Notes: generated by a model from the sequence alone, not told the origin. A stretch of DNA of 64,000 nt from an uncultured Candidatus Saccharibacteria bacterium (GCA_964600985.1 CAZRJR010000001.1:235534-299533), one strand, 5' to 3'; shown: positions 1-52,731, numbered from the stretch's first letter. Made by a program: numbers and translations.

Positions 1-488
1 CTGCCGCCATATACTAAACCAAAGAGCATGGGCCCCACAAAGTGGCAAGCCGAATTCAGGGAGTCGAGGAACGGGATCTCTTTAAACCGTAAACCTTTTA
101 TACTATAGCTTATACATAAGAACACGACGAATGCTAGAGCTATGCGGCTGGCCGTGGAACCATTAAACACAAAGTACGTGAGGAAAGGCAGGTTGAGTCC
201 GATGATCGCGTACCAGAGGGTTCTTCGCTCACTCGGTGCAACTATGCCGCCCTCGATTGAATCCTTGCGAGGATTCTTAATATCAGACTCGTAATCATAA
301 ATGTCATTAATTCCATATATAGCCAAGTTATACGGCAAGAGGAAGTAGCCAACTCCCACCCAAAAACCAATATCAAGCTTGCCGGTGGCGAGCAGATAGC
401 CAGCTACAAAGGGCGCGGTGGTATTGATCCAGCTAAATGGCCTCGATACCTTGAGAATTTGCTTGGTAGTAGTTAGGAAATTCTTCAT
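1..488 (-). CDS. UbiA-family prenyltransferase, partial (C-terminus lies beyond the window start); lycopene elongase CrtEb-like
   Basis: Minus-strand translation from ATG (RC of 486-488) gives MKNFLTTTKQ...GINDIYDYESDIKNPRK with the Asp-rich NDxxDxxxD motif and a multi-TM profile. The start overlaps the stop of the upstream cyclase subunit as ATGA. Its position after crtYe/Yf matches the Corynebacterium crtYe-crtYf-crtEb order. Confidence 0.55.
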   Translation of the reverse strand, partial: MKNFLTTTKQILKVSRPFSWINTTAPFVAGYLLATGKLDIGFWVGVGYFLLPYNLAIYGINDIYDYESDIKNPRKDSIEGGIVAPSERRTLWYAIIGLNLPFLTYFVFNGSTASRIALAFVVFLCISYSIKGLRFKEIPFLDSLNSACHFVGPMLFGLVYGG

Positions 489-787
489 GATTTTGATTGC
501 TCCTTGGTGCGGAGTCGAGCATAAAGTGATGGCGTCAAAATAGTCGCGACCACTAAATAGCAGAAGTCTTCGACCGGCATAGTGCCGATGTGAATACCAA
601 GAATACGTTCACTATTGTAGCGCACAATCGGCAGAGCTGTAAGGTAGGTATTAAAAACCAGCATGCATGCGCCCAGTATACCAAAGGTAATTATCAAGGC
701 TTTTAAGTTGAGTTTTGGTTTCAGCAAATATACTAGTACCGCACTCGTGGCCATAAATACCAGATTGATAGAAGTGTAGGTGAGCAT
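485..787 (-). CDS. lycopene cyclase domain protein, small subunit (CrtYf/CrtYd-like)
   Basis: 100-aa hydrophobic multi-TM ORF in a carotenoid cluster, translationally coupled (TAATG and ATGA overlaps) with the neighbouring 110-aa paralog and the UbiA gene. Confidence 0.5.
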   Translation of the reverse strand: MLTYTSINLVFMATSAVLVYLLKPKLNLKALIITFGILGACMLVFNTYLTALPIVRYNSERILGIHIGTMPVEDFCYLVVATILTPSLYARLRTKEQSKS

Positions 788-1119
788 TACGCTGGTTCTC
801 CGAGAAATTTCACTACCACTCTATAGCAAATGAGGGATACATAACTGAGCATGGTGAGGAACAGAAACTCTTCAATTGGCAAGTCGGGGGTGGCAATCCA
901 CCAGCCAATTACGTAGCTTTGGTTGGTAAAAAACACGCGGAATAATATGCCGGCGATATCCCAGCAAATAAACAGTCCGATAGTGGCGAGAATGGTGTAT
1001 ATTGCCGCTCGTGGCTGGTCGAAGATCACTAGCTTATAGTGATAGTCGGCTAAGCTAAGGCCAAATAGGCTTACAAGCAAGATGACCAAGTATGAGTAGT
1101 GGGTGGTGAGTAAATACAT
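787..1119 (-). CDS. lycopene cyclase domain protein, small subunit (CrtYe/CrtYc-like)
   Basis: 110-aa membrane protein divergent from crtI. The pairing with a second ~100-aa membrane ORF is typical of heterodimeric lycopene cyclases. Confidence 0.5.
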   Translation of the reverse strand: MYLLTTHYSYLVILLVSLFGLSLADYHYKLVIFDQPRAAIYTILATIGLFICWDIAGILFRVFFTNQSYVIGWWIATPDLPIEEFLFLTMLSYVSLICYRVVVKFLGEPA

Positions 1120-1173
1120 CCTGATCTCAGTATACTACCCAGCGCTCATTTTGTTGTGTTAAGATATTGCTTA

Positions 1174-2664
1174 ATGGCAAGGCAGAAAACAGCAGTAGTA
1201 ATTGGCGCGGGCATTGGTGGCTTGTGCGCCGCTGCACGCCTGCAAAAAGACGGCTACCAGGTGACTGTGGTCGAAAAGGAACCAATCATTGGTGGTCGGG
1301 CCCATGTAATTAAGCAAGACGGTTATACCTTTGATACTGGTCCAACCATCCTCATGATGACCGATGTGTTGTATGAAACTTTTCGCTATTGTGGCAAGGA
1401 TTTTGATGACTATATTTCGCTTTCACAACTCGAGCCTAATTACCAAGTGCGCTGGGCTGATGGCAGTGGCGTGGAGGTTTCGAGTAACCTGCCGCGATTT
1501 GCAGCGTCCTTGAGCCAGATAGACCCCAAGGCTCCAGAGCAGTTTTATAAGTTCTTTGCTGAAATGGCCAAGATGTATCGCGTGGGGCGCAATAAGTTTA
1601 TCGACAAGAACTTTGATAAGGTGACGGACTTTATTGATGTAAGGGCTGGGTTGGAGTTGGCTCGCAGTGGTGGTTTGCGCAAGCTCTACAGCTATGTGTC
1701 GAGCTTTTTTGACGACCCTCGCTTGCGTATGCTGTTTAGCTTCCAGGCTATGTATTTGGGCGTATCGCCCTACGAGGCTCCAGCGGTATACGGCATGGTG
1801 AGCTATATGGAGACTGGCTTAGGTATATGGTATCCGCAGGGCGGCATGCACAAACTGCCCGAAGCTTTGGGTAAGTTGGTCGAAGACTTAGGTGGCAGCA
1901 TTCGTACTTCGACGGCGGCGGCACGGGTTATGATTGAAGGCAAGACTGCCCGAGGTGTGGTATTGGAAAACGGTGAAGAATTACGCGCCGATGCGGTGGT
2001 ATGTAACGCTGACTTACCCTACGCTTACAAGCAGCTTGTGCCAGAGCAGTATCGTCCGCATAGTAACGACTCCAAGCTAACTACGCTCAAGCAAGCCAGT
2101 TCTGCGCTATTGTTTTACTGGGGTGTCGATGACGACATGGCTGGCATGTTGCACCATAATGTTTATTTCTCTAAGAACTTTAAGCAAAATCTGGACCAGA
2201 TCTTCCACGAAAACAAATTGCCGACCGACCCGGCATTCTACATATATGTTCCTACTAAGACTGATCCTGGCCTAGCTCCGAAGGGCAAGAACGTAGTTTA
2301 TATTTTGGTACCGGTCCCTAACTTAGCTGCTAAGATTGATTGGGAAAAAGCAGTGCCAAAGATTAAAACACGCATACTTGAGCGGATGAAAGCCATTTAT
2401 GGCCTCGACATAGAACGTAAGATTGAGTCAGAGGCAATATTTACACCCCAAGATTTTCAGTCCAAATTCAACCTAACTGACGGTACAGCGTTTGGCCTGA
2501 GCCACCACTTCTTTCAATCGGGCTATTTCCGACCGTCCAATAAGGCCCGTGATATTGCCCGACTATACTTCGTGGGGGCAAGTACCTACCCTGGTAGTGG
2601 CGTGCCGATGGTTACCCTAAGTGGCAAATTGGTGGCCGAGCGCATTAGCCGGGAGCTCGTATGA
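1174..2664 (+). CDS. crtI: phytoene desaturase (FAD-dependent)
   Basis: N-terminal dinucleotide-binding motif VVIGAGIGGL, ~500 aa, CrtI-like length and conserved C-terminus. An upstream in-frame GTG at 1156 is an alternative start. Confidence 0.85.
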   Translation: MARQKTAVVIGAGIGGLCAAARLQKDGYQVTVVEKEPIIGGRAHVIKQDGYTFDTGPTILMMTDVLYETFRYCGKDFDDYISLSQLEPNYQVRWADGSGVEVSSNLPRFAASLSQIDPKAPEQFYKFFAEMAKMYRVGRNKFIDKNFDKVTDFIDVRAGLELARSGGLRKLYSYVSSFFDDPRLRMLFSFQAMYLGVSPYEAPAVYGMVSYMETGLGIWYPQGGMHKLPEALGKLVEDLGGSIRTSTAAARVMIEGKTARGVVLENGEELRADAVVCNADLPYAYKQLVPEQYRPHSNDSKLTTLKQASSALLFYWGVDDDMAGMLHHNVYFSKNFKQNLDQIFHENKLPTDPAFYIYVPTKTDPGLAPKGKNVVYILVPVPNLAAKIDWEKAVPKIKTRILERMKAIYGLDIERKIESEAIFTPQDFQSKFNLTDGTAFGLSHHFFQSGYFRPSNKARDIARLYFVGASTYPGSGVPMVTLSGKLVAERISRELV

Positions 2665-3743
2665 AGGACTACGAAGACTTCTTTAGCTTAAATGAGCGTG
2701 TAGCGCGAGAAGTCGATGTGTATATGGCGGAGTACTTGGCCCATAAAACCAGTCAAGCCGCAAACATTGACCCACGATTTAGGCGCCTTCTGGCAGAAAT
2801 AGAACGAGTAGTTCGGCTTGGCGGTAAGCGTCTGCGCCCAACCCTCGCTGTCGTAGGCTACAAGGCAGTCGGGGGCCAAAACGATGAGTTGGCTTTGCGC
2901 GCTGGGGTGGCGCTGGAGCTTTTGCATATATTTATGTGTATTCACGATGATATTATGGATCACGACACTCTTCGTCATGGCGGGCTCAATATAACGGGGC
3001 GCTACAACACGATACTGGACAACCTTGAGCCCATGCTGCGTCAGCACATAGCAGAATCAATGTCACTCCTCGCCGGCGATTTACTTTTGACGTTTACGTA
3101 TGAAGTAATTAGTGCACTCGATCTGCCAGCCGATACGCGCTTTACGCTCCTCGAACAGCTTACCAAGACCACATTTACTACCGTTGGTGGGCAGCTTCTG
3201 GATGTACTCTACCCGCTTGAGGGTGAAGTTAGTGTGGGGCGTTTACTCAAAATTCCGCATTATAAAACGGGCATATATACATTTGTAAGTCCCTTACTGT
3301 TTGGGGCGACCCTGGCTGGCAGTAAGCAGGCGCAGAGTATGGAGATCATGCAGGAGTATGGCGAAAACCTTGGCATTACCTTCCAGATAGTGGATGATAT
3401 ACTCGGGGTATTCGGTACTACTGAATCTACTGGTAAACCAATCGTGTCTGATATGCGAGAGAATAAACCGACGATTTTGCGTCATTATGCTTTTGAGCTG
3501 TCGAGCCCAGAAGAGCACGCGGTGCTTGAAGCTGCATTCGGTAATCCAATTGCCGGCTCAAAAGAACTGGATGCAGTGCGAAAGATTATGGTTTCAAATG
3601 GTGCTCGAGCTAAGACGTTTGCCCAAGCCGAACAATATGCTCATCAGGCCAAACAAGCGCTCCTTCCACTCAGTGAGGCTGCACCCGAGCAATATGGCCA
3701 GCTCGTACAGCTAGCGGACTTCTGCTTAACCCGGGATCACTAA
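2661..3743 (+). CDS. polyprenyl synthetase (geranylgeranyl diphosphate synthase)
   Basis: FARM-like DDxxxxD (HDDIMDHD) and SARM-like (IVDDILG) motifs. The start overlaps the crtI stop. Confidence 0.8.
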   Translation: MKDYEDFFSLNERVAREVDVYMAEYLAHKTSQAANIDPRFRRLLAEIERVVRLGGKRLRPTLAVVGYKAVGGQNDELALRAGVALELLHIFMCIHDDIMDHDTLRHGGLNITGRYNTILDNLEPMLRQHIAESMSLLAGDLLLTFTYEVISALDLPADTRFTLLEQLTKTTFTTVGGQLLDVLYPLEGEVSVGRLLKIPHYKTGIYTFVSPLLFGATLAGSKQAQSMEIMQEYGENLGITFQIVDDILGVFGTTESTGKPIVSDMRENKPTILRHYAFELSSPEEHAVLEAAFGNPIAGSKELDAVRKIMVSNGARAKTFAQAEQYAHQAKQALLPLSEAAPEQYGQLVQLADFCLTRDH

Positions 3744-3744
3744 G

Positions 3745-4593
3745 GTGAAACCAACAGCAACGGAGCTTAAGGCAAGCTTTGCTTACTGCCGTAAGGTAAC
3801 ACGGCGTGCATCATCGACGTTTTACCTTGCTTCGCGTATGTTCGCGCCTGGGGTGCGCAATGATTTATGTGCTATCTACGCGTTTTGCCGCATTGCCGAC
3901 GATATAGCCGATGCGCCAGGGCTCAAGCAGCAAGATCGTAGGCAAGAACTTAGTTTGCTTACCCATACGCTTAAATCGGAACGCTATAGTGAGGGCGACG
4001 AACTGTGGCCGGCACTATTAGATACACTAGCGCGACATAAAGTACCCAAAACGTATTTCTATGAACTCCTGGAGGGCATGGAGCAAGACATAGCGCCTTT
4101 CGAGGTTAAGACGTATCGGGATCTGGAGAGGTACAGCTACTTAGTGGCTGGTACAGTCGGGGTTATGTGCGTGTATGTACTTGGTCAGCCGAGCCAAAAG
4201 GCACTCGCGGCCGCAAAGCAGCTTGGTATAGCTATGCAAATTACCAACATTCTGCGTGATGTCAGTGCTGATGCGGCAATAGGGCGCGTGTATTTGCCGA
4301 GTGATTTGTTAGCCCGCCACAACTTAAGTCGTAAGCAAGTATTACAAGCTCAAAACCAAGCCGCTCTCGCCCAGGTACTAAAGGAATTGGCGGCTCGAGC
4401 CGAGCAAAAGTATGACCTAGCCGCAGCTGGGCTGCCATACCTTACACCGGCTAATCGCCGACCAGTACAAATTGCCCTAAACTTATATCGGTCTATTCTT
4501 CGCCGCATAGAACAAAAGCACTATAACGTTTATAATACAAGAATACGCTTAAGCTTGGTTGCCAAGCTCATGGTAGTTGTACGAACACGCTAG
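3745..4593 (+). CDS. crtB: phytoene synthase
   Basis: Squalene/phytoene synthase signatures (YAFCRIADDIAD, ITNILRDV...D). Confidence 0.85.
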   Translation: MKPTATELKASFAYCRKVTRRASSTFYLASRMFAPGVRNDLCAIYAFCRIADDIADAPGLKQQDRRQELSLLTHTLKSERYSEGDELWPALLDTLARHKVPKTYFYELLEGMEQDIAPFEVKTYRDLERYSYLVAGTVGVMCVYVLGQPSQKALAAAKQLGIAMQITNILRDVSADAAIGRVYLPSDLLARHNLSRKQVLQAQNQAALAQVLKELAARAEQKYDLAAAGLPYLTPANRRPVQIALNLYRSILRRIEQKHYNVYNTRIRLSLVAKLMVVVRTR

Positions 4594-4607
4594 TAAGTAG
4601 GTAATAC

Positions 4608-5960
4608 ATGGAGCAATCACCACAGCGCAGACATGGCATTGATGGGCTAAGTCACCGGCCTGTTTCGCCGCGTCCACAGGCTTCACGACCACCACAGATG
4701 GCCACCGAAAAACTTGTGAGCACTTCCTCGCATCGGCCAAAAGCGGTGCCTCGCAAGTATGGCATAGCAGAGCTGCCGAGTAACTCTGGGTTTGCCTTTA
4801 ACGAAGGCGTGTCTCATCCTGGTCTGCCACAGCAGCACGCACCACTACGAACTAATCAAGCCTCGAGCTTTAAACGCTTGGTTATGTATCCATTTGCTCG
4901 ACCATTCGATAACCGTATAGCACGGTTTGGACTTATCGCCACGGTGCTTGATATACGCTTCTGGCTGGTTTTGAGCCTGCCATTACTTATTCTTCGCTTG
5001 CATGAACTCGCCAAACTTGCACCCATTCAGGTGGTGCATAAGCTCAATGCGCTCCTGGTTGCCCATAATTATGGTTGGGGGGCAGCCTTGCTTGGCGGGT
5101 TGTACTTAGCGGGAGTGCTTTCGGTGCTGATAGTCGCTGTTGCCCTGCAAGTGATCACAGCCATCAAGATCCGAGCTATTGATCACCGCGTTAGTCGCGC
5201 CCATATTCTTGTGCGTCATGCGATCTCGAATATACTCAAGACTACACTCAATTGGCTCATTGACTCTACCTTTGCTCTGAGCATGATTATCCTCGCTTGT
5301 GCGGGCATCTATGGTCTCAGTATATCAACTACTCCTTGGGTGGTTATATGGCGTGATTATTTGGTAGGACTGATTGGACTAGTAAGCTTTCTAGTGCTCG
5401 GTGTGCTCTATGTGCGTCGTAAATTACAGCGGGCTATGCTCGCTACCACCCAGCTACCAGTACGATCTATTCAGGGTCGGTCACTCATGCTTGTGGTGCG
5501 TAATCTGCCCGTAAGTGCACTAGCCCTACTGCTAGCCCTCTTGCAGTTGACGGGGGCTATGGTTATTACGGCTGGAATCGGTGGCATAATTGTACATTAC
5601 TTGCCACTTACTACTACTATCCCCGGGCGTTTATGTCTGTGGCTGCTGGCTGCTATTGGTATGGGCTTGGTATGGTTAGTTACGGTCGTGTGGCAGGCTA
5701 TGCACTGGGCTGGCTTCTACCACCTCGTAGTTTTGCGTGGTAGCAAAGACACCGTGTCGGACTACCTTGTTCCGACAATGCCTTTGAAGCTACGGGTGTG
5801 GCCGGCATTGGTCGCAGCCGGGCTCACCTTGCTGGTATTTTGTACTTACGCCGGTGCAGTAATTGGGCTTCGGCCGCAGGTACGAAGTGTGGTGCAGCGA
5901 GCGAAGCAAGTTATTCCGTCCGATGCTCGTAATATCGTGCCAGGCATTGGTCAGCATTAA
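4608..5960 (+). CDS. polytopic membrane protein, function unknown (true start may lie downstream of the Pro-rich N-terminus)
   Basis: Long ORF with more than 8 predicted TM helices directly after crtB. The N-terminal 90 aa are low-complexity and Pro-rich. Confidence 0.4.
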   Translation: MEQSPQRRHGIDGLSHRPVSPRPQASRPPQMATEKLVSTSSHRPKAVPRKYGIAELPSNSGFAFNEGVSHPGLPQQHAPLRTNQASSFKRLVMYPFARPFDNRIARFGLIATVLDIRFWLVLSLPLLILRLHELAKLAPIQVVHKLNALLVAHNYGWGAALLGGLYLAGVLSVLIVAVALQVITAIKIRAIDHRVSRAHILVRHAISNILKTTLNWLIDSTFALSMIILACAGIYGLSISTTPWVVIWRDYLVGLIGLVSFLVLGVLYVRRKLQRAMLATTQLPVRSIQGRSLMLVVRNLPVSALALLLALLQLTGAMVITAGIGGIIVHYLPLTTTIPGRLCLWLLAAIGMGLVWLVTVVWQAMHWAGFYHLVVLRGSKDTVSDYLVPTMPLKLRVWPALVAAGLTLLVFCTYAGAVIGLRPQVRSVVQRAKQVIPSDARNIVPGIGQH

Positions 5961-6041
5961 CCTTGACGGATCCCTATCTGGTAGGGTATAATGCTAGCTA
6001 AGAAAGCCCCAGAGGCTTTTTTAGATTGACGAAATAATTGG

Positions 6042-6070
6042 TCAAACACTCACAACTAGGTATAATGGAG
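6042..6070 (+). promoter_or_regulatory. sigma70-like promoter upstream of secE (TTGGTC-N17-TATAAT)
   Basis: Hexamers read directly. A second TTGACG-N18-TATAAT lies at 5963-5992 and is followed by a small hairpin plus T-tract. Confidence 0.35.
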
Positions 6071-6074
6071 GGAT

Positions 6075-6266
6075 ATGAATAAGCTTATTACTTACATTTC
6101 GCTTTCCTATGCTGAGCTTCAGAAGGTAACCTGGCCCACTCGCAAGCAGGCCATCCAGCTTACCCTGATAGTAATTGCCTTCTCGGTAGTCCTGGCTGTC
6201 ATAGTTGGCGGGTTTGATACGATTATTCGCTCATTCTTGCAGCAAGTAATCTTAAAGGTGAAATAA
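6075..6266 (+). CDS. secE: preprotein translocase subunit SecE
   Basis: 63-aa single-TM protein immediately upstream of nusG, with the conserved secE-nusG-rplK-rplA order. Confidence 0.75.
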   Translation: MNKLITYISLSYAELQKVTWPTRKQAIQLTLIVIAFSVVLAVIVGGFDTIIRSFLQQVILKVK

Positions 6267-6806
6267 ATGAGCAAAGACAGCACCCCACAGGCTTGGTATG
6301 TAATCCATACCTACTCAGGCTACGAAGACCAGGTGGCCGACAACTTGCGCCAGCGCGTTGAGTCAATGGGCATGAGCGACAAAGTATTTAGCGTAATTGT
6401 ACCTAAAGAAAACCAGATCGAAATCAAAAACGGCAAGCGTCGTGTAGTAGAGCGCAAGATATTCCCCGGCTATATTCTAGTCGAAATGATCGTAACCGAA
6501 GACTCTTGGTATGTAGTGCGTAACACACCAAATGTAACGGGATTTGTTGGTACCGGCACCACACCATCACCGATTAGTGACGATGAAGTAAAGGCAATTC
6601 AGAAGCGTATGGGCGTGGAAGAGCCAAAGTACAAGGTTGACTTCTCGATTGGTCAGTTGGTAAACATAACCGATGGTCCGTTCAAGGGCTTTGATGGCGC
6701 AGTCAGTGAAATCGATGAAAGCAAAGGTAAGCTCAAAGTATTGGTTAACATGTTTGGTCGCGAGACTCCAGTGGAACTAGATAGCTTACAGGTAAAGAAA
6801 GTATAA
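6267..6806 (+). CDS. nusG: transcription termination/antitermination factor NusG
   Basis: NGN domain (WYVIHTYSGYE) plus C-terminal KOW motif (GQLVNITDGPFKGFDG). Confidence 0.9.
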   Translation: MSKDSTPQAWYVIHTYSGYEDQVADNLRQRVESMGMSDKVFSVIVPKENQIEIKNGKRRVVERKIFPGYILVEMIVTEDSWYVVRNTPNVTGFVGTGTTPSPISDDEVKAIQKRMGVEEPKYKVDFSIGQLVNITDGPFKGFDGAVSEIDESKGKLKVLVNMFGRETPVELDSLQVKKV

Positions 6807-8352: not shown

Positions 8353-9225
8353 GTGTCTTGCCAGGGTAGCCTACCGCCATATACAATGGTACAAAAGGGG
8401 GTGTGTGTGGGTGAGCAGACAAATGGTCGTGCACAAGCATGGTTTCGTGAGCAGGTAAATTCCAGTGACTTTGACCTTGCGGCAATCGAAATGTACCAAC
8501 GCAAAGTTGGCAGGCCATTTTCGGGTGTAATGGGAGATGGTGAGATCCAAGCTGCTTTGCGCTCGGGCCAGATAGTAATAGATCCGTTTGATCCGGATTT
8601 ACTCCAATCATCTAGTTATGACGTCCGTCTAGGTGGCTGGTTCTACTCGGCTGAACGACTTGGGCATAGAGTCGACTTCTCACCATATGCCGAAAGTGAA
8701 GTACGCGAATACTACTCTGGGCCGCACAAAGCCATTAGTCACAAGCAGTGGTGTAGTGACCACCAGCGCCAGCCGTTTAAAGGTATTGGTGAGGATGAGC
8801 TGGTAATTGTACTGGCGCCCGGAGAGTGTATTTTAGGCCACACGGTAGAATACATTGGTGCGGCATACGGCGCTACCACTATGATGAAAGCTCGCTCGAG
8901 CTTGGGTCGAATAAATATCTCTACCTGTGATGATGCTGGGTGGGGCGATGTTGGCTACATAAACCGTTGGACTATGGAGATCCGTAATAAGAACCAAGAT
9001 GTATGGGTGCCATTGGTGGTTGGTATGCCGATTGGGCAGCTGATATTCCTGTGGGTGGCCGGCTCAACTAAGGACTATAGCGACGGTGGTCACTACCAGT
9101 CGGGAGTAGATGTAAAATCACTCAAGCAATCGTGGAAGCCGGAATCTATGTTGCCGCGTATCTGGTCGCCCAAGAACACGGAGATTCGTTCGCGTTTGCT
9201 CAAAAACTCGAAGCAGGTTTTTTGA
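8353..9225 (+). CDS. dcd: dCTP deaminase family protein (start uncertain; core domain begins near 8527)
   Basis: Motifs GQIVIDPFDP, SYDVRLG, SSLGR and DAGW(G)D(V)GY of the dCTP deaminase/dUTPase superfamily. Confidence 0.75.
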   Translation: MSCQGSLPPYTMVQKGVCVGEQTNGRAQAWFREQVNSSDFDLAAIEMYQRKVGRPFSGVMGDGEIQAALRSGQIVIDPFDPDLLQSSSYDVRLGGWFYSAERLGHRVDFSPYAESEVREYYSGPHKAISHKQWCSDHQRQPFKGIGEDELVIVLAPGECILGHTVEYIGAAYGATTMMKARSSLGRINISTCDDAGWGDVGYINRWTMEIRNKNQDVWVPLVVGMPIGQLIFLWVAGSTKDYSDGGHYQSGVDVKSLKQSWKPESMLPRIWSPKNTEIRSRLLKNSKQVF

Positions 9226-9301
9226 ACGCTAAGTAAGCTCCCCTCTGACAAAGAAGGGGGCTTTGAGGCGAAAGTCAAAGAACCTTGAAAGGAATTTGAT
9301 C

Positions 9302-24384: not shown

Positions 24385-24488
24385 TGGTGAGGGGAGGATT
24401 TGAACCTCCGCGTAGTTTTACGACCCGAAGGCCTTCATCGCTAGGCAGGTTTTCAACCCGCTCCATTCGTCCACTCTGGCACCCCACC
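24385..24488 (-). tRNA. tRNA-like gene, 104 nt, class-II-like (anticodon loop folds as TTGAAAA by hand; identity unresolved)
   Basis: Perfect acceptor stem (GGTGGGG/CCTCACC, one G-U), D-arm with a GG motif, 5-bp anticodon stem, and a canonical T-arm (GGAGG-TTCAAAT-CCTCC). There are 35 nt between the anticodon stem and the T-arm, too long for a normal variable arm. Confidence 0.45.
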
Positions 24489-50568: not shown

Positions 50569-51033
50569 ATGCTAAAAGTTGGAGACAAGGTACCAAGCTA
50601 TAAGCTGCAAGATCAGGATGGGAACGAACACACCGAAGCGGAGCTAAAGGGTAAAACAACCTTGATTTACTTTTACCCAAAAGACAATACGCCAGGCTGT
50701 ACGGCCCAGGCGTGCCAATTGCGCGATAATCTTGAAGATCTAAACAAAGACGGCATAGAAGTAATTGGTGTAAGCGCCGATAGTGTAAAGAGCCACCGTG
50801 GTTTTGCCGACAAGTTTAAGTTGCCATTTACTATTCTGGCTGACCCAGATAAGCAAATGATCCAGACGTTTGGCGCTTGGGCAGAGAAGAGTATGTTTGG
50901 CAAGAAGTACATGGGGATTACCCGCTCCAGCTTCCTGATTGGACCCGATGCTCGTGTGCTAGCTGTATGGCCCAAGGTTAAGCCATTGCACCAGGTAGAA
51001 GACGTACGCGAGTTCTTAGCTGCTCAAAAGTAG
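50569..51033 (+). CDS. bcp: thioredoxin-dependent peroxiredoxin Bcp
   Basis: FYPKDNTPGCTAQAC active-site motif. Confidence 0.85.
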   Translation: MLKVGDKVPSYKLQDQDGNEHTEAELKGKTTLIYFYPKDNTPGCTAQACQLRDNLEDLNKDGIEVIGVSADSVKSHRGFADKFKLPFTILADPDKQMIQTFGAWAEKSMFGKKYMGITRSSFLIGPDARVLAVWPKVKPLHQVEDVREFLAAQK

Positions 51034-51036
51034 TCT

Positions 51037-51522
51037 ATGGGTTGGCTCCTGCTACTTGGGTTGGTGGTGGTAAGCGGCTTTCTGTACGCCGTATTCTTCG
51101 GTGCTCCCTACGTACCAGCCTTTCAACAAGATATTGATGAACTTTTAGAAATGGCTAGGGTAGGGAAGGGCGCTTACTTTGTAGACCTAGGTAGCGGCGA
51201 TGGCAAAGTGCTGCTGGCCGCAGCCAAACGTGGTGCCCAGGTAGAGGGCTATGAGATTAACCCTGTCTTGTGGCTGGTGAGTAAGTGGCGATTACGTAGG
51301 TTCAGGAGCCAAGCCAAGTTGCACCTAGGCTCCATGTGGCGAGCGAATGTAGGTAGTGCCGACGTCGTGTTTTTATACCTCCACACCAACTGGATGCACA
51401 AAATGGCAACCAAACTAAAGGCTGAGCTCAAGCCTGGTGCTATGGCGGTGTCCTATGTATTTAACTTTGGTGGCCTCAAGCCCATGCAGACTACTCGCAA
51501 TGCCTATATATATAAGTTTTAG
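51037..51522 (+). CDS. class I SAM-dependent methyltransferase (small)
   Basis: Motif I VDLGSGDGKVLL, acidic residue at the end of beta-2 (EGYEIN). Confidence 0.55.
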   Translation: MGWLLLLGLVVVSGFLYAVFFGAPYVPAFQQDIDELLEMARVGKGAYFVDLGSGDGKVLLAAAKRGAQVEGYEINPVLWLVSKWRLRRFRSQAKLHLGSMWRANVGSADVVFLYLHTNWMHKMATKLKAELKPGAMAVSYVFNFGGLKPMQTTRNAYIYKF

Positions 51523-51587
51523 CATGCAGTATATCTTTGACCGCGAGGCGGAAAATTCGTACAATAGAACTATAGTAAAGGAGGCGT

Positions 51588-52190
51588 ATGACCTACGTAT
51601 TTCAACCCCGAGAACCTCAGCCGCTTAAGTATAAGAGTGTAGAAGGTCTCAGCGAAAAACAGCTAGCGGAGCACCACGACGTGCTTTATGCTGGTTATGT
51701 AAAGAAGTATAACGAGATCATGGAGAAGCTGGGAAGCGTGGACCTGAGTGGTACCAATGCCACCTATTCAGAGCTACGGGAGCTGATGGTGGAGAAGTCA
51801 TTTGCTCTCAATGGACTCAAGTTACACGAACTCTACTTTGCCAACCTAACTGATAAACCAGCACCAATCGAGGGTAAGATTAAAGACCTACTCACTAAAC
51901 AGTGGGGGAGTTTCGAAGCCTGGCAGGACCAATTTGCCGCACTCGGCATCGCGTCACGCGGCTGGGTCGTACTAGCTTACGACTATGCACTTGGGCGATT
52001 TGACAACTACGTGCTCGATGCTCATAACCAAGGCAGTATAGTAGATACTGAAATCGCCCTGGTCATGGACGTGTATGAGCACGCGTACTTCCTCGATTAC
52101 GGTACCGCGCGTAAGGAATACATAGTGAGCTTTATGGCGGCGATTGACTGGGCCGAGGTCAACAAACGCGTAGCTCATCACGAAGTATAG
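51588..52190 (+). CDS. sodA: Fe/Mn superoxide dismutase
   Basis: HHDKHH-like N-terminus (LAEHHDVLYAGYV) and a C-terminal D...WEHAYY-like metal site (DVYEHAYFLDY). Confidence 0.9.
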   Translation: MTYVFQPREPQPLKYKSVEGLSEKQLAEHHDVLYAGYVKKYNEIMEKLGSVDLSGTNATYSELRELMVEKSFALNGLKLHELYFANLTDKPAPIEGKIKDLLTKQWGSFEAWQDQFAALGIASRGWVVLAYDYALGRFDNYVLDAHNQGSIVDTEIALVMDVYEHAYFLDYGTARKEYIVSFMAAIDWAEVNKRVAHHEV

Positions 52191-52209
52191 ATAACCCAAA
52201 GGAGAATAT

Positions 52210-52731
52210 ATGTTAAAGCTTAATCAACCAGCACCAGAGTTTACTCAGCCAGCCTACGTAGCGGGCAAGGATTTTAGCGAGGTTAGCTTAAAGGACTACA
52301 AGGGTAAATGGGTGGTATTGTTCTTTTACCCACGTGATTTTACTTTTGTGTGTCCAACTGAGATCCGGGGTTTTGCAAAAGCAGAGGATGAGTTCGCTAA
52401 AATCGACGCCGTAATCTTAGCAGCTTCGACCGATAGCGTGTACTCACACAAGGCATGGTTCGAGCAAGACCTTAAAGAAGTTAAATTTCCAGTACTCGCC
52501 GACACTGCACACACACTAGCTCGCGACTATGAGGTGCTTAATGAGTCCGATGGTACGGCTGAGCGCGGTACGTTCATCATTGACCCAGAAGGTAACCTGC
52601 GCTACGTAGTTATATCAGATGGCAATGTAGGTCGTAGTGTAGAAGAAACCTTGCGCGTTGTTAAGGCACTCCAGACCGGCGGACTCTGCCCAGTAGACTG
52701 GGAGCCCGGCCAAGATACGTTAAAAGGTTAG
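52210..52731 (+). CDS. peroxiredoxin (AhpC/TSA family)
   Basis: FFYPRDFTFVCPTE peroxidatic-cysteine motif. Confidence 0.85.
   Translation: MLKLNQPAPEFTQPAYVAGKDFSEVSLKDYKGKWVVLFFYPRDFTFVCPTEIRGFAKAEDEFAKIDAVILAASTDSVYSHKAWFEQDLKEVKFPVLADTAHTLARDYEVLNESDGTAERGTFIIDPEGNLRYVVISDGNVGRSVEETLRVVKALQTGGLCPVDWEPGQDTLKG

Follow-up and report, generated by a model that had tools for sequence, protein, structure and literature searches.

The left end of a 64,000-nucleotide stretch of DNA from an uncultured Candidatus Saccharibacteria bacterium (GCA_964600985.1, CAZRJR010000001.1:235534-299533; hereafter the window) carries a set of carotenoid genes that probably specify a glycosylated, cyclic C50 pigment. 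Over positions 1-4593, the listing of open reading frames (ORFs) and the Pfam and NCBIfam matches define two divergent operons: cycA-cycB-UbiA on the minus strand, with two small lycopene cyclase subunits and a UbiA-type prenyltransferase, and crtI, a gene of the geranylgeranyl diphosphate (GGPP) synthase type and crtB on the plus strand (Table 1). All six genes that an earlier inspection of the sequence alone (the sequence-only reading) had placed here were found in place, with family matches far beyond chance. That reading had also recognized an arrangement of the crtYe-crtYf-crtEb type. The gene set bears this out, but the layout does not, as the locus consists of two divergent operons with a fused glycosyltransferase and not of a collinear actinobacterial operon.

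Organization of the cluster

The minus-strand genes are translationally coupled, with stop and start codons overlapping as TAATG between cyclase subunits A and B and as ATGA between subunit B and UbiA. On the plus strand, the start of the prenyl synthase gene overlaps the stop of crtI, and the membrane protein gene that ends the operon is followed by secE, nusG, rplK and rplA. Comparison of the crtI-cycA spacers of 15 related loci (L003-L021) revealed a TATAAT/TATACT-like box 7-12 nucleotides upstream of the cycA start, and a similar -10-like box lies in the spacer near the crtI start on the opposite strand. If these boxes function as they appear to, the mRNAs of both operons are probably leaderless or have short leaders. 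A scan of positions 1-6400 for sigma-70 promoters and terminators gave only background-level signals and none in the 1120-1173 spacer. Two fusion-type loci carry an extra ORF of about 200 amino acids (aa) between crtI and cycA (L005, ~540-1185; L020, ~8600-9245).

Table 1. Features of the window and of contig L001, which extends it to the left, and domains of the fusion protein
Feature	Position	Strand	Remarks
UbiA part of the fusion gene	1..488	-	First 162 codons of 667 aa; the gene leaves the window at its left edge
Cyclase subunit B (CrtYf/CrtYh/LbtB-like), 100 aa	485..787	-	PF18916, TIGR03462
Cyclase subunit A (CrtYe/CrtYg/LbtA-like), 110 aa	787..1119	-	TIGR03462
Divergent spacer, 54 bp	1120..1173		Palindrome AGTATACT
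crtI, phytoene desaturase family	1174..2664	+	TIGR02734, PF01593; ORF from GTG 1156, 502 aa
Short-chain trans-prenyl diphosphate synthase, 360 aa	2661..3743	+	PF00348
crtB, SQS_PSY phytoene synthase, 282 aa	3745..4593	+	PF00494
Polytopic membrane protein, 450 aa	4608..5960	+	Last gene of the plus operon; without known family
Orphan membrane protein, 282 aa	L001 2543-3391	-	Beyond the fusion gene; often downstream in syntenic loci
LeuA/homocitrate-synthase-like HMGL protein, 400 aa	L001 5903-7105	-	Without C-terminal regulatory domain
Candidate tRNA	24385-24488	-	Rfam, 46.6 bits
Oxidative-stress genes (three)	50569-52731		Assigned from N-terminal sequences only
Fusion protein, UbiA domain	residues 1-~290
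Fusion protein, linker transmembrane helix	residues ~296-322		Followed by RRPKK
Fusion protein, GT-A domain	residues ~335-550
Fusion protein, C-terminal transmembrane helices	residues ~572-655

The plus-strand genes encode the enzymes expected for the synthesis of lycopene. CrtI scores 516.1 bits on TIGR02734 (cut-off 238.1), matches PF01593 (E 1e-42) and is 63-77% identical across syntenic Saccharibacteria loci. Its start is likely the ATG at 1174, which yields the usual MxxK..VVIGAGIGG N-terminus with the FAD-binding GxGxxG. The prenyl synthase matches PF00348 (E 4.9e-49, 167 bits); its first aspartate-rich motif, DDIMD, has no insertion and is preceded by F at -5 and M at -4, and the second reads DDILG. 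According to the established chain-length rules, such a first motif fits a type-I GGPP synthase, and the enzyme is probably a GGPP synthase with the role of IdsA/CrtE. CrtB matches PF00494 (E 1.4e-73, 248 bits) and was detected at every syntenic locus by profile search. It is the fastest-evolving protein of the set, with identities of 25-55%, against the 63-77% of CrtI. The GGPP-synthase-type gene to which crtB is coupled suggests that it acts in C40 synthesis.

Both small minus-strand ORFs carry the lycopene cyclase domain, as the sequence-only reading had claimed. TIGR03462 scores 53.0 and 48.7 bits on the two subunits (cut-off 39.4), with E-values of 3.6e-14 for subunit B and 8.4e-13 for subunit A; subunit B also matches PF18916 (E 1.5e-13, 51.6 bits), and the Pfam scan gave no match for subunit A, which has three predicted hydrophobic segments. 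The PxE(E/D) motif, present as PIEE in subunit A and PVED in subunit B, is invariant in alignments with the homologues of Labedella, Kocuria and Aquiluna.

An elongase fused to a glycosyltransferase

The UbiA gene is cut by the window edge. An exact-protein look-up retrieved two Logan contigs, L001 (7,949 bp) and L002 (4,221 bp), which are 100% identical to positions 1-1018 and 1-2185 of the window, respectively, and from which the complete gene could be read. It encodes a 667-aa protein in which a UbiA domain is joined, through a transmembrane (TM) linker helix, to a family 2 glycosyltransferase (GT2) domain. The sequence-only reading had suspected an adjoining glycosyltransferase gene (crtX) past the edge; the glycosyltransferase is there, but joined to the C-terminal end of the elongase. 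Because the same architecture is seen in about 100 independent protein clusters (90% identity), an artefact of assembly or a frameshift was rejected as the origin of the fusion. An AlphaFold2 model of the fusion, computed with 70 homologues, has a pLDDT of 91 and a pTM of 0.88, the UbiA part forming a helical bundle.

The evidence supports the assignment of the UbiA domain, by its sequence, as a CrtEb-type lycopene elongase (NF009608/PRK13105) of the cyclase-linked clade and not of the lyeJ type. The 162-aa fragment in the window already matches PF01040 (E 4e-11) and NF009608 (207.8 bits), and the full-length domain raises these values to E 1.5e-21 and 325.2 bits (cut-off 217), while the sister models NF010119 (160.9 bits) and NF009516 (131.1 bits) stay below their cut-offs. 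Both Asp-rich motifs are intact: NDIYDYESD at residues 61-69, which had been noticed as an NDxxDxxxD motif from the sequence alone, and QDIAPDR at 188. A neighbour-joining (NJ) tree of 78 sequences (288 columns, 100 bootstraps, Escherichia coli UbiA, MenA and CyoE as outgroups) separates the elongase family from the outgroups with a bootstrap of 99. It also recovers a cyclase-linked elongase clade that includes the window protein (bootstrap 94), a clade of elongases with the ubiA-crtD arrangement (100) and a clade of Saccharibacteria fusions (73). A MenA, UbiA or CyoE identity, the grouping that the sequence-only reading had wished to see checked, was rejected on this separation and on hidden Markov model (HMM) scores of 17-21 bits (UbiA 21, MenA 17) against 325. 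Identity of the UbiA domain to actinobacterial homologues is 38-49%, and 44-49% for the proxies Dietzia sp. PP-33, Kocuria, Labedella and Lysinibacter; in the Actinobacteria Dietzia and Lysinibacter, UbiA proteins that also carry a cyclase domain are 47-49% identical over the UbiA part. The higher-order groupings of subclades that we tested had bootstraps of 3-15, and the tree thus gives no direction for any transfer between Actinobacteria and Saccharibacteria.

The GT2 domain matches PF00535 over residues 339-451 of the fusion (E 1.4e-11). Its best NCBIfam models are HpnB (89.1 bits, cut-off 379) and CruG (51.2 bits, cut-off 600), neither of which is reached. A search with the GT2 domain alone returned seven matches, the closest named stand-alone homologue being annotated as 'chlorobactene glucosyltransferase' (28% identity, E 4e-19). 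In the model the domain adopts a GT-A fold, and its neighbours in the PDB fold search are generic GT2 enzymes only: SpsA and the DPMS-like PcManGT (E 1e-6 to 1e-8), as well as cellulose and hyaluronan synthases. The motifs ADQNK, SPLED/PEME and SQNH are conserved.

Conservation and decay of the cluster

The named members of the UbiA-GT2 protein clusters are annotated as 'prenyltransferase [Candidatus Saccharibacteria bacterium]', and NusG of the window is 79-93% identical to proteins of Saccharibacteria/Patescibacteria metagenome-assembled genomes (MAGs). The chromosome had already been judged Saccharibacteria-like from the sequence alone, and these matches agree. The expectation that a complete pigment pathway would be unusual in candidate phyla radiation (CPR) bacteria or in Saccharibacteria was not borne out, given the number of clusters with the fusion. 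A scan of GTDB species genomes yielded 80 loci, which were sorted by neighbourhood with tblastn and profile searches. Saccharibacteria with the fusion (type a) have the layout of the window and adjoin nusG, and those with an unfused UbiA (type b) carry cycA-cycB-ubiA beside crtI, two of them (L034, L040) in the collinear order idsA-crtB-crtI-cycA-cycB-ubiA. The same collinear order is found in the Actinobacteria Labedella, Kocuria and Aquiluna (type c); in Microbacterium, Arthrobacter, Cellulomonas and other Actinobacteria ubiA is followed by a CrtD-like gene (type d). Cyclase-less clusters with ubiA beside crtI-crtB-idsA (type e) occur in Paceibacteria, Parcubacteria, Uhrbacteria, Taylorbacteria, some Saccharibacteria and Pyrinomonadaceae, and the order cycB-ubiA::GT2-crtI-crtB (type f) in Chloroflexia, Anaerolineaceae and Dormiibacterota. 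NF009608 is the best model for every cyclase-linked UbiA (253-464 bits; Labedella 464, Kocuria 440, Aquiluna 376), whereas type d elongases are best matched by NF010119 and type e elongases by NF009516.

The elongases of type e clusters in Saccharibacteria and other CPR bacteria (L049, L053, L062, L076, L080 and others) group with those of Pyrinomonadaceae (Acidobacteria). Saccharibacteria thus carry at least two unrelated types of elongase cluster, and for acyclic products the cyclase-less one (NF009516) is the more plausible source. One contig labelled as a Methanosarcinales archaeon MAG (L037, CAYHOF010000001.1) carries a bacterial-type idsA-cycA-cycB::ubiA-crtI-crtB cluster with an NF009608 elongase of 253 bits; either the contig is misbinned or an archaeon has acquired the cluster.

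Gene fusions recur in several phyla and appear, by their architecture, to tie the cyclase, elongase and GT2 activities together. Cyclase B is fused to the elongase in Dietzia, Kocuria and Lysinibacter, which argues that these enzymes work together. Elongase-GT2 fusions occur in Saccharibacteria and also within the crt clusters of Chloroflexia, Anaerolineaceae and Dormiibacterota, and one protein (P0106) is a triple cyclase-elongase-GT2 fusion.

In Saccharibacteria the position of the cluster is fixed. The arrangement Memb450-crtB-idsA-crtI / cycA-cycB-ubiA::GT2, in which Memb450 is the 450-aa membrane protein, lies beside secE-nusG in 13 of 13 fusion-type loci with enough flanking sequence, with protein identities of 40-77%, Memb450 itself being present in 12 of them. 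The GC content, 0.475-0.507 over positions 1-6000, lies within the range of the whole window (0.459-0.532). Recent horizontal acquisition was rejected because the GC content equals that of the backbone and the synteny is conserved throughout. The cluster is intact and long resident in the Saccharibacteria chromosome, in agreement with what had been suggested from base composition.

The fusion has also outlived the cluster in some lineages. Alignment of 70 fusion proteins showed both UbiA Asp-rich motifs in 61; the other nine (P0067, P0084, P0087, P0089, P0091, P0093, P0095, P0098 and P0099) have lost both motifs yet keep those of GT2. In the three of these nine contexts that were examined (L087-L089), the secE-nusG-rplK-rplA site is the same but has lost crtI, idsA and both cyclase genes; L087 alone retains a crtB-like gene, and a homologue of the 450-aa membrane protein is detectable at two of the three. 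Proteins from these loci are 47-50% identical to the window protein over GT2 and 35-41% over UbiA, whereas motif-bearing loci show the reverse (UbiA 51-61%, GT2 40-48%), with the exception of the closest relative, L003 (UbiA 66%, GT2 70%). Two motif-less proteins recur across numerous contigs (33 and 38 index blocks) and therefore come from abundant organisms. From these comparisons we conclude that the cluster is ancestral at the secE-nusG site and is lost as one unit, so that the catalytic motifs of UbiA are tied to the crt genes, and that the GT2 moiety has a function able to outlive carotenoid synthesis.

Two orphan membrane proteins accompany the fusion. Neither the 450-aa nor the 282-aa protein matched a Pfam or NCBIfam family, and relaxing the Pfam search to E 5 gave nothing for either. 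The 450-aa protein has about seven to eight predicted hydrophobic segments and is retained where the crt genes are gone. As constant neighbours of UbiA-GT2, also at sites without any crt gene, both are candidate partners of the glycosyltransferase. Past the fusion gene, L001 encodes the 282-aa protein, a major facilitator superfamily transporter, a YGGT protein, a K+ channel-like protein and a LeuA-like protein. The best model for the last is 2-isopropylmalate synthase (237 bits, far under the cut-off); such a gene is odd for a type of organism said to lack amino acid biosynthesis.

Elsewhere in the window, genes for a Bcp-like peroxiredoxin, an Fe/Mn superoxide dismutase and an AhpC-like peroxiredoxin are clustered; this trio would fit an oxic, possibly sunlit habitat. 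The candidate tRNA found with Rfam has a 32-nucleotide insert at the position of the variable arm and was not reported by ARAGORN. Its anticodon loop reads UUGAAAA, which makes it a candidate Ser-UGA or second Phe-GAA tRNA.

Proposed pathway and comparison with known systems

We propose, with a probability of roughly 0.6, that this resident Saccharibacteria locus encodes every step of a pathway to a glycosylated and probably cyclic C50 carotenoid; family matches cover all seven domains that it involves. The prenyl synthase would condense isopentenyl diphosphate (IPP) and dimethylallyl diphosphate (DMAPP) to GGPP, CrtB would couple two GGPP molecules into phytoene, and CrtI would desaturate phytoene to lycopene. 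The UbiA domain would then place a DMAPP-derived C5 unit on one or both ends of lycopene and leave a hydroxyl, as CrtEb does, and the heterodimer of small cyclase subunits would form the end rings, presumably on the C50 and not on a C40 intermediate, as their coupling to and fusion with the elongase suggest. Finally, the fused GT2, predicted to lie at the cytoplasmic face behind the linker helix, would move the sugar of a nucleotide sugar onto those hydroxyls. The product would be a bipolar membrane lipid that might protect against light or oxidants, stiffen the membrane, or do both. Gene content, families, coupling, the architecture of the fusion, conservation and synteny are observed in the sequences; all substrates and products, the type of ring, the sugar and the role in the cell are predictions. 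Synthesis as far as lycopene is very probable and elongation highly likely; cyclisation of the elongated product is reasonably likely, and for glycosylation by GT2 the balance tips only slightly in favour. The sequence-only reading had named decaprenoxanthin; the cyclic C50 kind is supported, but decaprenoxanthin is merely one of three possible ring types, since the rings could be epsilon, gamma or beta.

Several observations weigh against this pathway, in whole or in part. The best NCBIfam matches of the prenyl synthase are to GGPP, GFPP and IdsA models, all below their equivalog cut-offs (GGPP_syn 161.7 of 500, IdsA 154.3 of 468), and CrtB likewise falls below every equivalog cut-off (HpnD, the best, 214.7 of 278.6; cyanobacterial CrtB 167 of 550; CrtB 131.5 of 480). 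Cyclases of the same domain family (CrtYc/Yd) make C40 beta-carotene in other bacteria, and for this reason the ring type and the C50 substrate are given here only as predictions. The tree contains no characterised CrtEb, CrtE2, LbtBC or LyeJ, and it is connected to biochemistry through gene order and proxies at the genus level. In 71 kb (the window and its extension), the genes examined include no methylerythritol phosphate or mevalonate pathway gene and no idi, and freshwater Saccharimonadia have been described with the C10-C20 isoprenoid steps only and no C5 pathway (PMC9166423); the source of IPP and DMAPP may be the host. Lastly, the canonical DxD of GT2 is replaced by ASD or SAD in all Saccharibacteria members, and the domain is kept in lineages that have lost crtI, idsA and the cyclases and whose UbiA Asp motifs have decayed. 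A carotenoid may thus not be the acceptor of GT2, or not the only one, and this persistence lowers our confidence that it is the sole acceptor.

The alternative that survives best starts from the same persistence. Elongation and cyclisation would proceed as proposed, and GT2 would be a glycosyltransferase for polyprenyl phosphate or another membrane lipid (DPMS/GtrB/HpnB-like), with the UbiA-like bundle as a lipid-binding anchor. The structural similarity to PcManGT, the distance from the CruG cut-off and the lack of a similar GT2 beside the sampled actinobacterial C50 clusters are in its favour. However, elongase-GT2 fusions lie inside crt clusters of Saccharibacteria, Chloroflexota and Dormiibacterota, the triple fusion exists, the closest named stand-alone homologue carries the annotation of a carotenoid glucosyltransferase, and the hydroxyls made by the elongase are the very ones to which known C50 pathways attach a sugar (PMC5401885, PMC10998873). 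We regard this alternative as unlikely, though it deserves serious attention. A more speculative view, to which we give rather little weight, is that environmental Saccharibacteria, which lack fatty acid synthesis and reportedly also that of C5 isoprenoid units, build a membrane-spanning glycosylated C50 carotenoid from host precursors by means of the bifunctional elongase-glycosyltransferase, and that in crt-less lineages the fusion is a glycosyltransferase with a dead prenyltransferase as a lipid-binding module. Such a module might hold carotenoids or polyprenols taken from actinobacterial hosts.

A cyclic C40 end product such as beta-carotene, possibly a precursor of retinal for rhodopsins or heliorhodopsins, with UbiA-GT2 unrelated to it, appears improbable. 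The ability of such heterodimeric cyclases to form C40 rings elsewhere would allow it, as would the survival of UbiA-GT2 without crt genes, and Saccharibacteria rhodopsins lack a known source of retinal (PMC9296517, PMC9166423). Against it stand the coupling of the cyclase genes to UbiA and their fusion to UbiA in Actinobacteria and in the triple fusion, as well as UbiA Asp motifs that are intact exactly at loci with crt genes and have decayed at loci without them. In addition, neither blh nor a rhodopsin gene was found among the genes examined in the 71 kb, and Jaffe et al. (PMC9296517) detected no blh in rhodopsin-bearing Saccharibacteria.

The third alternative, an acyclic pathway of the bacterioruberin type (lyeJ, crtD and cruF), is the published interpretation of this cluster and in our view has slightly less chance still. 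HMM matches to lyeJ, crtD and cruF were reported in the Patescibacteria genome Baikal-deep-G192 and in a Saccharibacteria MAG, and bacterioruberin was predicted (PMC9948471). One of our loci, L011, is a contig of Baikal-deep-G192 and has the cluster of the window, cyclases and GT2 fusion included. The crtI product of the window does score on the bifunctional CrtID (420 bits) and CrtD (305 bits) models, but below their cut-offs of 640 and 500, and the cluster proteins comprise a single CrtI-family member and none that matches Caroten_synth or CruF. Moreover, both HMMs and the NJ tree place the UbiA domain in the cyclase-linked NF009608 subfamily and not in the crtD-linked or cyclase-less ones, and two cyclase subunits are translationally coupled to it. 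Taken together, the sequence comparison indicates that clusters of the Baikal-deep-G192 type belong to the cyclic C50 subfamily. That the locus is an inactive relic of an organism unable to supply IPP and DMAPP is very improbable: the reported lack of C5 synthesis in Saccharimonadia (PMC9166423) and the decay in some lineages would fit, but all ORFs are intact with their catalytic motifs, the cluster is conserved at 13 of 13 syntenic loci across deep divergence, and decay elsewhere took the form of gene deletion, in which genes are not left intact.

To our knowledge, CPR bacteria are regarded as metabolically minimal episymbionts without lipid synthesis of their own, and here at least seven genes of a CPR chromosome would be devoted to a specialised membrane pigment. 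Retention at one site over deep divergence suggests that the product matters for the envelope or for light or oxidative-stress biology. The cluster makes it testable where Saccharibacteria cells obtain their C5 isoprenoid units, and its relation to actinobacterial clusters bears on the exchange of genes between Saccharibacteria and the Actinobacteria known as their hosts. Intact clusters, a locus with a crtB remnant and loci with nothing but the GT2 fusion form a natural series through which the real acceptor of the glycosyltransferase could be approached, and a compact elongase-glycosyltransferase could serve in the engineering of glycosylated C50 carotenoids. In the searchable literature we found no description of an elongase-GT2 fusion and nothing relevant on decaprenoxanthin in CPR bacteria or on carotenoid biosynthesis in Saccharimonadia; the one relevant report on this cluster is that on bacterioruberin (PMC9948471), and the present analysis refines this only published reading. 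Jaffe et al. (PMC9296517) discussed the missing retinal synthesis of rhodopsin-bearing Saccharibacteria but not carotenoid genes.

The closest known system is that of Actinobacteria, in which lycopene elongation, cyclisation and glycosylation lead to glycosylated cyclic C50 carotenoids in Corynebacterium glutamicum and Micrococcus luteus (PMC5401885, PMC10998873). It shares with the window the GGPP synthase, phytoene synthase, desaturase, two small cyclase subunits and UbiA elongase (PMC5401885), as well as the end product proposed here, and its collinear gene order recurs in the unfused Saccharibacteria loci L034 and L040. Judged by genus proxies, LbtA/LbtBC of Dietzia sp. CQ4 (C.p.450, beta-cyclic) and CrtE2-CrtYg-CrtYh-CrtX of M. 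luteus (sarcinaxanthin glucosides), both cited in PMC5401885, fall in the same cyclase-linked elongase clade. Unlike the actinobacterial system, the window has divergent operons in a CPR host, a glycosyltransferase fused to the C-terminus of the elongase, no CrtR regulator and an orphan membrane protein instead of the MmpL-type cg0722; where Dietzia, Kocuria and Lysinibacter have an N-terminal fusion of a cyclase subunit to the elongase, the window protein has a C-terminal GT2 instead.

The bacterioruberin pathway LyeJ-CrtD-CruF of haloarchaea and Arthrobacter (PMC9948471), proposed earlier for Patescibacteria, has in common with the window a UbiA-family elongase and a C50 backbone, but its UbiA is of the NF010119/NF009516 subfamily, it has no cyclases, and it needs CrtD and CruF, which are absent from the window cluster. 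CruC/CruG and HpnB, which act on hydroxylated isoprenoid lipids, resemble the window GT2 in having a GT-A domain followed by C-terminal TM helices; the window domain differs in scores far under the CruG and HpnB equivalog cut-offs, in ASD/SAD for DxD and in its covalent fusion to a prenyltransferase. New with respect to all these systems are the elongase-glycosyltransferase fusion, the divergent operons accompanied by two orphan membrane proteins, the breadth and fixed position of the cluster in Saccharibacteria, and the series of its decay.

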